Positions 16,937-18,140 of a DNA stretch of 21,203 nt are shown piece after piece. Source of the stretch: Promethearchaeota archaeon (GTDB taxonomy: Archaea > Asgardarchaeota > Odinarchaeia > Odinarchaeales > JBHLKK01); NCBI GenBank assembly GCA_048939465.1, contig JBHLPL010000024.1, forward strand, positions 1-21,203, written 5' to 3'. Both the position numbers and the translations under genes were made by a program. How positions within the stretch are numbered: position 1 is the first letter of the stretch; the number at the start of each line of letters is the position of its first letter. Under the pieces are notes generated by a model. It searched no databases. It saw nothing but the letters and a program-made list of their open reading frames with translations, and had not been told where the DNA came from.

Positions 16937-17857
16937 TTAAGTTCCGCCAAGGATTAATGCAAGCAGCGCCATACGAACAAGAACACCATTCCAAGGTTGT
17001 TTGAAGTAGACTGCGCCTGAGATTCCATCCACCTCGGCATCGATCTCGTCTACTCTGGGGAGCGGATGCATTATAATGACGTCACTTCTCCCGTTCTTCA
17101 AGAGATCCAAATCAATCTTATACGAGCCCCTAACCTTTTCATATTCTGTTGCGTCTGGAATTCTCTCCCTCTGGATGCGCGTAATGTATATCACATCAAC
17201 ATCTTCTATAACCTTCTCAATACGTTCCACTTCCGTTACTTTGACACCCTGTTTTTTGACATCGTCAATTATCTCAGATCTCATTCTCAGTAGCGGGGGT
17301 GAGACCAGGAATAGATTCACATCATACATCGATAAGGCGTAGGACAATGAATGGACAGTACGACCGTACTTTAGGTCACCTACTAGCGCTATACTCAGTC
17401 CATCAATGTCCTTTTTTTCTCTTCGAATCGTCAACAAATCAAGCAATGCTTGAGTGGGATGCTCTTCCGACCCAGAACCGGCATTGATGATCGGAGTCTG
17501 AGAAAGCTCGGATGCCAGTCTTGCTGCCCCCTCTAACGGATGCCTGAGTACAATTACATCTGCATAACTCTCAACGACTCTAATGGTATCACTGAGATTT
17601 TCTCCTTTAACGGCAGACGTTGTACCAGGCTCTGCAAAACCAACTACCCCTCCTCCAAGTCTTTTCATGGCGGTCTCAAAGGAAATCCGAGTTCTGGTGC
17701 TGGGCTCATAGAATAAAGTTGCCAAAATCCTTCCTCTAAGAAGGTCTGATCCCTTCCTAGCAAATTCTTCCATCTTTTCTGCAACATCAAGAATGTGCTC
17801 CACCTCTTCGCGGGTGAAATCGTGAATTGATACCACACTGCGTCCCTCAAAACTCAC
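16937..17857 (-). CDS. pyrB: Aspartate carbamoyltransferase catalytic chain
   Basis: FYEPSTRT, KGE.L.DT, INAG.G..EHPTQ.LLD, GDLKYGRTVHSL and MHPLPR. Start is GTG 17857 or ATG 17866; the longer ORF-track start runs through the promoter. Confidence 0.96.
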   Translation of the reverse strand: MSFEGRSVVSIHDFTREEVEHILDVAEKMEEFARKGSDLLRGRILATLFYEPSTRTRISFETAMKRLGGGVVGFAEPGTTSAVKGENLSDTIRVVESYADVIVLRHPLEGAARLASELSQTPIINAGSGSEEHPTQALLDLLTIRREKKDIDGLSIALVGDLKYGRTVHSLSYALSMYDVNLFLVSPPLLRMRSEIIDDVKKQGVKVTEVERIEKVIEDVDVIYITRIQRERIPDATEYEKVRGSYKIDLDLLKNGRSDVIIMHPLPRVDEIDAEVDGISGAVYFKQPWNGVLVRMALLALILGGT

Positions 17858-17901
17858 CGCACACATCTCCCACCATTTTAGAAAATAATTCCTATATGTT
17901 A

Positions 17902-17948
17902 CCTTTAACCTTTTCCAAAAGCCCTCAGCCATAAGCTTTTTCAAATAA
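17902..17948. promoter_or_regulatory. Back-to-back promoters for pyrB (minus) and tRNA-His (plus)
   Basis: Minus-strand GGAAAAGG-TTAAAGG (17916-17902) is a good BRE-TATA. Plus-strand ATAAG-CTTTTTCAAATAA (17931-17948) is a weaker TATA-like element upstream of the tRNA. Confidence 0.5.
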
Positions 17949-17970
17949 TTCATCTATATTCCAACAGAGT

Positions 17971-18140
17971 GGCCGGGATCAAGATGGCCGGGATACGCGA
18001 AAAAAAGCGTCCCGAAGGGGTAGGGGTAGTCCTGGCGGCCTGTGGACCCCGACATATAAAGGGGGACAGACAGACGCCATGTAAACCACTACGTGGTGCC
18101 ATAACCGCAGGCGGGGGTTCGAATCCCCCTCCCGGCCCCA
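17971..18140 (+). tRNA. tRNA-His(GTG) with three introns (8/9: 17995-18016; 37/38: 18046-18071; 39/40: 18074-18104) and a possible fourth (5/6: 17977-17991); G-1 and CCA encoded
   Basis: After removal the 76-nt mature sequence is G-GCCGGGA-TG-GGGTAGGGGTAGTCCT-G-GCGGC-CTGTGGA-GCCGC-AGGC-GGGGG-TTCGAAT-CCCCC-TCCCGGC-C-CCA. It has a perfect 7-bp acceptor stem plus G-1:C73 (the His hallmark) and perfect anticodon and T stems. The gene starts at 17986 instead if the 5' duplication is only leader. Confidence 0.93.

Follow-up and report, generated by a model that had tools for sequence, protein, structure and literature searches.

A conserved duplicate of the 5' acceptor strand ahead of a three-intron tRNA-His gene in an Asgard archaeon, and its possible part in removal of the 8/9 intron

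Transfer RNA genes of archaea can contain introns. The tRNA-His(GUG) gene described here carries three of these, and it is also preceded by an exact duplicate of its own first bases. The question raised by this locus is what a second copy of the 5' end is doing outside the mature tRNA. An earlier note on the window (the whole stretch of 21,203 nucleotides that was analysed) read the duplication as a candidate fourth intron. The duplicate can also be considered as a part of the leader, as DNA of the promoter region, or as a second splice site for the first intron.

Anatomy of the gene and of its duplicated 5' end

The sequence TGGCCGGGAT is present twice, at 17970-17979 (copy A) and at 17985-17994 (copy B); this agrees with the earlier note, which had reported a 10-nt repeat occurring twice, 15 nt apart. 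Copy B is the 5' end of the tRNA-His(GUG) gene, and copy A is a duplicate just upstream. The repeated unit consists of U-2, G-1 and tRNA positions 1-8, and the copy is exact. The tandem unit reads AU-GGCC-GGG-AU and contains the palindrome GGCC, which extends from G-1 to C3 of tRNA-His. The encoded G-1 is found at 17986, opposite C73. The 5' strand of the acceptor stem occupies 17987-93; the 3' strand occupies 18130-36 and is followed by an encoded CCA (Table 1).

The gene model is based on homology and on an ARAGORN run on the spliced sequence. With 17995-18016, 18046-71 and 18074-18104 excised, what is left is a normal tRNA-His of 75 nt plus G-1; unspliced, the gene is detected by neither ARAGORN nor Rfam. 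The exon boundaries agree with the 5' ends of tRNA-His in the sister genus and in another family, both of which are without the 8/9 insertion. The gene is single copy, no other tRNA-His gene being found in the 91% complete assembly. With the Rfam tRNA model, only 24 tRNA genes are recovered from this genome; at 91% completeness so low a number suggests that many others are probably concealed by multiple introns. Within the window Rfam detects just one tRNA, a tRNA-Leu gene at 15-120, which has an insertion in the variable-arm region.

Table 1. Features of the tRNA-His locus, with positions in the window
Feature	Position	Strand	Basis or remark
BRE/TATA-like element (ATAAGC + TTTTTCAAATAA)	17931..17948	+	homologous to sister-genus tRNA-His promoter
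Second TATA-like element TCTATATT	17953..17960	+	about 33 nt before copy B
Copy A: spare U-2, G-1 and positions 1-8; candidate stand-in acceptor strand	17970..17979	+	exact repeat, conservation, predicted fold
15 nt removable by candidate splice motif (proposed fourth intron)	17977..17991	+	formal class 4/2/2
Spacer between copies	17980..17984	+	4-6 nt in relatives
Copy B: U-2, encoded G-1, exon 1 (positions 1-8)	17985..17994	+	8 bp with 18130-37; homology to intron-free relatives
Intron 1, position 8/9	17995..18016	+	central helix CGGG 17989-92 with CCCG 18011-14
Exon 2, positions 9-37, anticodon GUG	18017..18045	+	
Intron 2, position 37/38	18046..18071	+	
Exon 3, positions 38-39	18072..18073	+	
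Intron 3, position 39/40	18074..18104	+	central helix only after intron 2 removal
Exon 4, positions 40-73 plus encoded CCA; 3' acceptor strand 18130-37	18105..18140	+	

Introns 2 and 3 are separated by only 2 nt. The central helix of intron 3 is formed by GUGG (positions 34-37) and CCAU (18099-102); it has four pairs after the removal of intron 2 and one pair before, which implies an obligatory order of splicing. A compensatory change from A18088:U18094 to G:C is present in the inner hairpin of intron 3 (18086-18096) in four relatives' sequences, and one further relative has the intermediate A-C mismatch at 18088:18094. In the sister genus (four species, with genomes of 1.3-1.4 Mb), tRNA-His has one insertion after the anticodon loop and another in the T-arm; insertions at 8/9 or 39/40 are absent. 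Given these differing sets of insertions, intron positions have turned over between the two families of this small class.

A direct repeat of at least 10 nt within 45 nt is found only in tRNA-His among the 29 tRNA loci of this genome; shuffles predict 0.11 loci with such a repeat for the whole set of 29. The repeat is not a product of chance. In relatives, the similarity of the two copies reaches a few bases further upstream (CAGAAU versus UAAAAU), and the 3' boundary of the duplicated stretch coincides with the 5' splice site of intron 1. Copy A probably originated when 14-15 nt of leader and exon 1 were duplicated in tandem. Two other origins were considered and rejected. The repeats are only 4-6 nt apart, which does not fit an integration scar or the target-site duplication of a mobile element, and neither the repeat nor the introns have another copy in the genome, which speaks against derivation from a mobile element or a paralog. 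The neighbours of the locus are pyrB/pyrI and an ABC transporter, and they do not mark it as part of a mobile element. In relatives, pyrI follows the aspartate carbamoyltransferase gene. Homology places the start of the latter gene (16937-17866, minus strand) at ATG 17866 (MCAVSFEGRS...); the ORF list starts it at 17953. Outside the genus its closest homologues reach no more than 66-67% identity; where they have names, the label is mostly Bathyarchaeota.

Conservation and possible transcription of the upstream copy

Eight distinct haplotypes of the locus were gathered from GTDB genomes, NCBI, JGI, ENA and Logan contigs; the DNA sources which carry it are mangrove, sediment and soil metagenomes. 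The class contains only seven species in GTDB, and a phylum-wide pattern search reached only three genera. Two exact-pattern scans of JGI metagenome contigs gave no match. Both copies are unchanged in all eight haplotypes. Contigs from four independent studies span the duplication, and a 15-nt deletion is found in none of them. The duplication is not an assembly error, and the artefact against which the earlier note had cautioned is thereby excluded.

Among the eight haplotypes none of the ten sites of copy A varies, as against about 12 of the 26 sites in the preceding 21 nt and the spacer taken together (p about 0.008 by a hypergeometric estimate). The spacer occurs as CAAGA, CAAAA, TAAA, TAAAA, TATAA and TATTCA; it varies in length and at 4/5 sites, with only the last A (A17984) invariant. 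The 3' trailer is saturated with changes, almost all of its sites being variable. The exons are without variation, one T-loop change in exon 4 aside, and hence show no covariation. The haplotype of one relative, from a Logan contig, has the T-loop TTCAATT instead of TTCGAAT and also the longest spacer (TATTCA). Since copy A is invariant while its flanks vary, it must be constrained, whether as RNA or as DNA, and a duplicate conserved in this way is probably functional.

The tRNA promoters of this genome resemble AAAGCTTAAA, with a T run which is mostly 29-38 nt before base 1. Upstream of tRNA-His, ATAAGC-TTTTT at 17931-41 puts the T run 35 nt ahead of base 1 in copy A (G17972) and 50 nt ahead of the same base in copy B; a spacing of 35 nt is the commonest in this genome. 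The element at 17931..17948 is invariant in the eight haplotypes and shares AAGCTT with the best tRNA promoters of the genome. Its spacing suggests a start at about 17966-71, in which case copy A would be transcribed. The second TATA-like element is part of an 18-nt sequence repeated from the pyrB promoter region; transcripts started from it would begin at copy B (about 17983-86). Both candidates are weak (1.9 and 1.1 bits) when scored with a weight matrix from 20 tRNA promoters. In some tRNA genes the best promoter match apparently lies 45-63 nt upstream; a leader of 15-20 nt is thus no outlier, and the argument from spacing is only suggestive. The TATA-like element that the earlier note had placed near 17937 is real and suitably spaced for a start near copy A, but the second box, about 33 nt ahead of copy B, could serve instead. 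The 18-nt direct repeat (AAATAATTC.CTATAT) is present at 17883-17900, in the pyrB promoter region, and at 17943-17960, before tRNA-His; it may represent a promoter module that is shared or acts in both directions.

Copy A as a possible stand-in for the acceptor strand

The central helix of intron 1 occupies C3-G6 of the real 5' acceptor strand (17989-92, in copy B). The intron motif and the acceptor stem thus compete for copy B, which cannot pair with the 3' strand while it is held in the splice helix. The 8/9 intron and copy A are both present in every member of the genus and both absent in six species, of which four belong to the sister genus and two to another family. It should be noted that this co-occurrence amounts to one evolutionary event.

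In the predicted lowest-energy fold of the precursor, it is copy A (17971-78) that pairs with 18130-37, over 8 bp. Constrained folding puts the cost of forcing the intron-1 motif at 2.4 kcal/mol with copy A, and at 0.2-0.4 kcal/mol in four other haplotypes; without copy A the cost is 7.5-8.5 kcal/mol. While the motif is forced, copy A is predicted to pair with the 3' strand. Leaders taken from 20 other tRNA genes give costs of 4.0-8.5 kcal/mol, and the native leader beats 20/20. Random leaders of local composition match the native cost in 2/200 cases, and composition-matched shuffles of the leader do so in 52/200, which weakens the energetic argument. Since shuffles are often as good, the effect requires a G-rich leader complementary to the C-rich 3' strand, not the exact sequence; in these folding models, an exact copy would be the simplest form of such a leader. 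Once spliced, the RNA is predicted to favour the fold in which copy A holds the 3' strand over the cloverleaf by 6.8 kcal/mol, which represents a misfolding hazard. No spare 5' strand was found in the other tRNA genes of this genome or in 20 tRNA-like genes in relatives' loci, and no insertion was found within the first 12 bases among the family-model tRNA genes of the genome. An extension of the copy A helix by pairing of leader and trailer (AGAG with CACU) was considered and dropped, as it is absent in relatives.

These observations lead to a tentative proposal, favoured here at somewhat less than even confidence: copy A may be a cis-acting stand-in (decoy) for the 5' acceptor strand, which aids removal of the 8/9 intron. 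Copy A would be carried at the start of the primary transcript and would pair with the 3' acceptor strand over the 8 bp. Copy B, freed by this pairing, would form the splice motif of intron 1, and the splicing endonuclease would cut. Once intron 1 is gone, copy B would displace copy A from the 3' strand. RNase P would then cut before G-1, and copy A and the spacer would be discarded as a leader of about 15-20 nt. The transcription of copy A, the switch of pairing and the order of these events are what we infer. The genome encodes two EndA paralogs, on contigs C90 (9287-9538) and C139 (31376-31636), as well as an RNase P RNA (178.6 bits) by which the leader could be removed. Although tRNA-His requires G-1, Thg1 was not found in the 91% complete genome, which means that the encoded G-1 must be retained. 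The decoy model does not account for the invariance of U17970, U17979 and A17984.

Alternative readings, known systems and significance

In the reading of the earlier note, copies A and B fold together as a splice motif from which 17977-17991 are cut out. The endonuclease would cleave behind 17976 and behind 17991, with a ligase joining the ends. The 15 nt (14-16 in relatives) would then leave as a mini-intron, possibly co-transcriptionally, and tandem duplication would have created the motif in finished form. Candidate and accepted motifs were scored by the Marck-Grosjean rules (central/outer/inner pairs). The candidate has four central pairs (GGCC 17971-74 with GGCC 17986-89), two outer pairs (17969:17994 and 17970:17993) and two inner pairs (17978:17985 and 17979:17984), the outer and inner pairs all being A-U or G-U. 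Its bulges are of 3 nt each (GGG 17975-77 and GGG 17990-92, cut GG/G). The full bulge-helix-bulge (BHB) geometry which had been claimed is thus borne out, and formally it is more canonical than that of the accepted introns (4/1/0, 4/1/4 and 4/0/9). The arithmetic of the cut also holds: excision of 17977-17991 along with the three introns yields the same 75-nt tRNA-His(GUG) plus G-1 as removal of the three introns alone. All the proposed pairs are kept in the eight haplotypes: the G-to-A change at 17969 still leaves a pair with U17994, and A17984 continues to face U17979. Between the inner pairs, the loop differs among haplotypes both in sequence and in length, which is usual for intron loops. 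The two EndA paralogs are compatible with such an intron, and introns 2 and 3 of this gene already show ordered, mutually exclusive splice folds. The candidate fold likewise excludes that of the 8/9 intron, as had been noted, C17989 being common to both central helices.

However, this geometry is nearly automatic for short tandem duplications. A full motif which removes one unit arises in 13% of simulated duplications of 13-17 nt that span the 5' end of one of 21 other tRNA genes, in 11% of simulated tandem duplications of random sequence, and in 47% (33/70) of those across this gene's own 5' end; there is no excess over chance at such sites. Because GGCC and AU are each self-complementary, two copies in tandem are bound to pair exactly as in the candidate fold. 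The geometry is weak evidence, as it is expected from the duplication. There are no compensatory double changes at the proposed pairs. The isolated motif is worth just -0.2 kcal/mol. Forming it costs 7.5-8 kcal/mol while the RNA is nascent and 16-19 once it is full-length; the range for the accepted introns is 2.4-10, although introns 2 and 3 themselves cost 6.6-10 kcal/mol and folding cost separates real from candidate motifs poorly. The 15 nt do not interrupt the mature RNA, since a complete gene from G-1 to CCA follows from 17986. RNase P cleavage at copy B yields an identical product, a caveat which the earlier note had itself raised, and a fourth intron is therefore unneeded. It would also leave the link with the 8/9 intron unexplained. 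What stands of this interpretation is its anatomy and its arithmetic; that the endonuclease really removes these bases is improbable. The presumed novelty of a four-intron tRNA does not stand either, since a preprint census of Asgard tRNA genes reports up to five intervening sequences in single genes (10.64898/2026.10.13.758758), and four would not be unprecedented.

The copies could instead be redundant 5' splice sites, with the CCCG of intron 1 pairing with either of them. Use of copy A would remove 17980-18016 (37 nt) in one step; use of copy B would remove 22 nt, with RNase P doing the rest, and either route yields the same tRNA. Pairing with copy A gives an identical central helix, flanked by a single outer and a single inner pair (A17981 opposite U18010); all six spacer variants have A as their second base. 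Copy B, on the other hand, offers a far better inner helix (ACGC with GCGU), and redundancy would relax selection on each copy, yet both are invariant; this reading is very improbable. It is also conceivable, if rather unlikely, that copy A has no function at the RNA level, and is either a harmless relic of partial tandem duplication or untranscribed core-promoter DNA. Its conservation would then reflect low divergence or constraint on the DNA. A duplication across the 5' end leaves a complete gene and hence is tolerated; TCTATATT at 17953-60 is positioned about 33 nt before copy B; the upstream block 17927-17969 is also fairly conserved, with 7/40 sites variable; and divergence among haplotypes is low overall (13/80 intron sites variable). 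Low divergence does not fit the contrast between copy A and the adjoining sites, nor the saturated trailer. A relic, if transcribed, would carry the predicted misfolding hazard, so that a neutral copy should decay. As for a DNA element, in the sister genus the second TATA-like box is too near the gene to act as a TATA box.

Multiple and non-canonical BHB introns are described for tRNA genes of archaea (Marck and Grosjean 2003), including Thermoproteales (PMC4033280). This gene resembles them in carrying three, at 8/9, 37/38 and 39/40, and it belongs to an Asgard lineage, for which heavily interrupted tRNA genes are reported; the candidate fold, too, conforms to the formal motif. Unlike them, the 15 nt precede an intact gene and do not interrupt the sole mature copy. 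A conserved spare copy of an exon in the leader is not described in the literature on archaeal BHB introns that was examined. In split and permuted tRNAs (Nanoarchaeum equitans, Caldivirga and Cyanidioschyzon), the leader and trailer pair as a splice motif which the endonuclease removes (PMC4090602, PMC3978253). Here, too, sequence outside the mature tRNA joins a pairing that serves the splicing endonuclease. The gene is contiguous, however, and in the favoured reading copy A would pair with the 3' strand, form no cut site and be removed by RNase P. Ordinary 5' leaders are removed by RNase P, and the encoded G-1 of tRNA-His is kept. The locus conforms to this in its G-1 opposite C73 and in the presence of RNase P RNA; it differs from ordinary leaders in its exact, conserved copy of the acceptor strand. 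A literature search found no published description of a conserved spare acceptor strand in a tRNA leader.

Eukaryotic spliceosomal introns are reportedly gained by tandem duplication in Rogers' model, which involves the spliceosome and AGGT sites. The duplication considered here would similarly supply both splice sites at once, and excision would restore the original; the introns in question are those of archaeal tRNA. Were the 14-16 nt between the cut sites truly spliced, which is doubtful, this would be an intron caught at birth. A short tandem duplication with a self-complementary tetramer would then supply both halves of a splice motif, with excision restoring the gene, and about one in eight random short duplications qualify as splice motifs in simulation. 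No signature of tandem duplication was seen at the three accepted introns when their ends were compared by eye with the adjoining exon ends. If true, the mini-intron would represent a general route for the origin of archaeal tRNA introns, and would bear on the question of arrival in the 2026 Asgard census, which tested three other routes of intron gain and left arrival open (10.64898/2026.10.13.758758). The simulation also cautions against calling introns by motif, as short duplications readily yield formally perfect motifs.

The stand-in proposal has a different significance. Introns in the 5'-proximal part of a tRNA pose a folding conflict, since the bases which the splice signal requires are also those of the acceptor stem; a conserved extra strand carried in the leader would resolve it simply and in cis. 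The locus is a clean test case: a single-copy gene with an exact repeat, a variable spacer, and no repeat where the 8/9 intron is absent. If the decoy holds, it would help to explain how introns exist at 5' positions in intron-rich archaea, including the Asgard relatives of eukaryotes.
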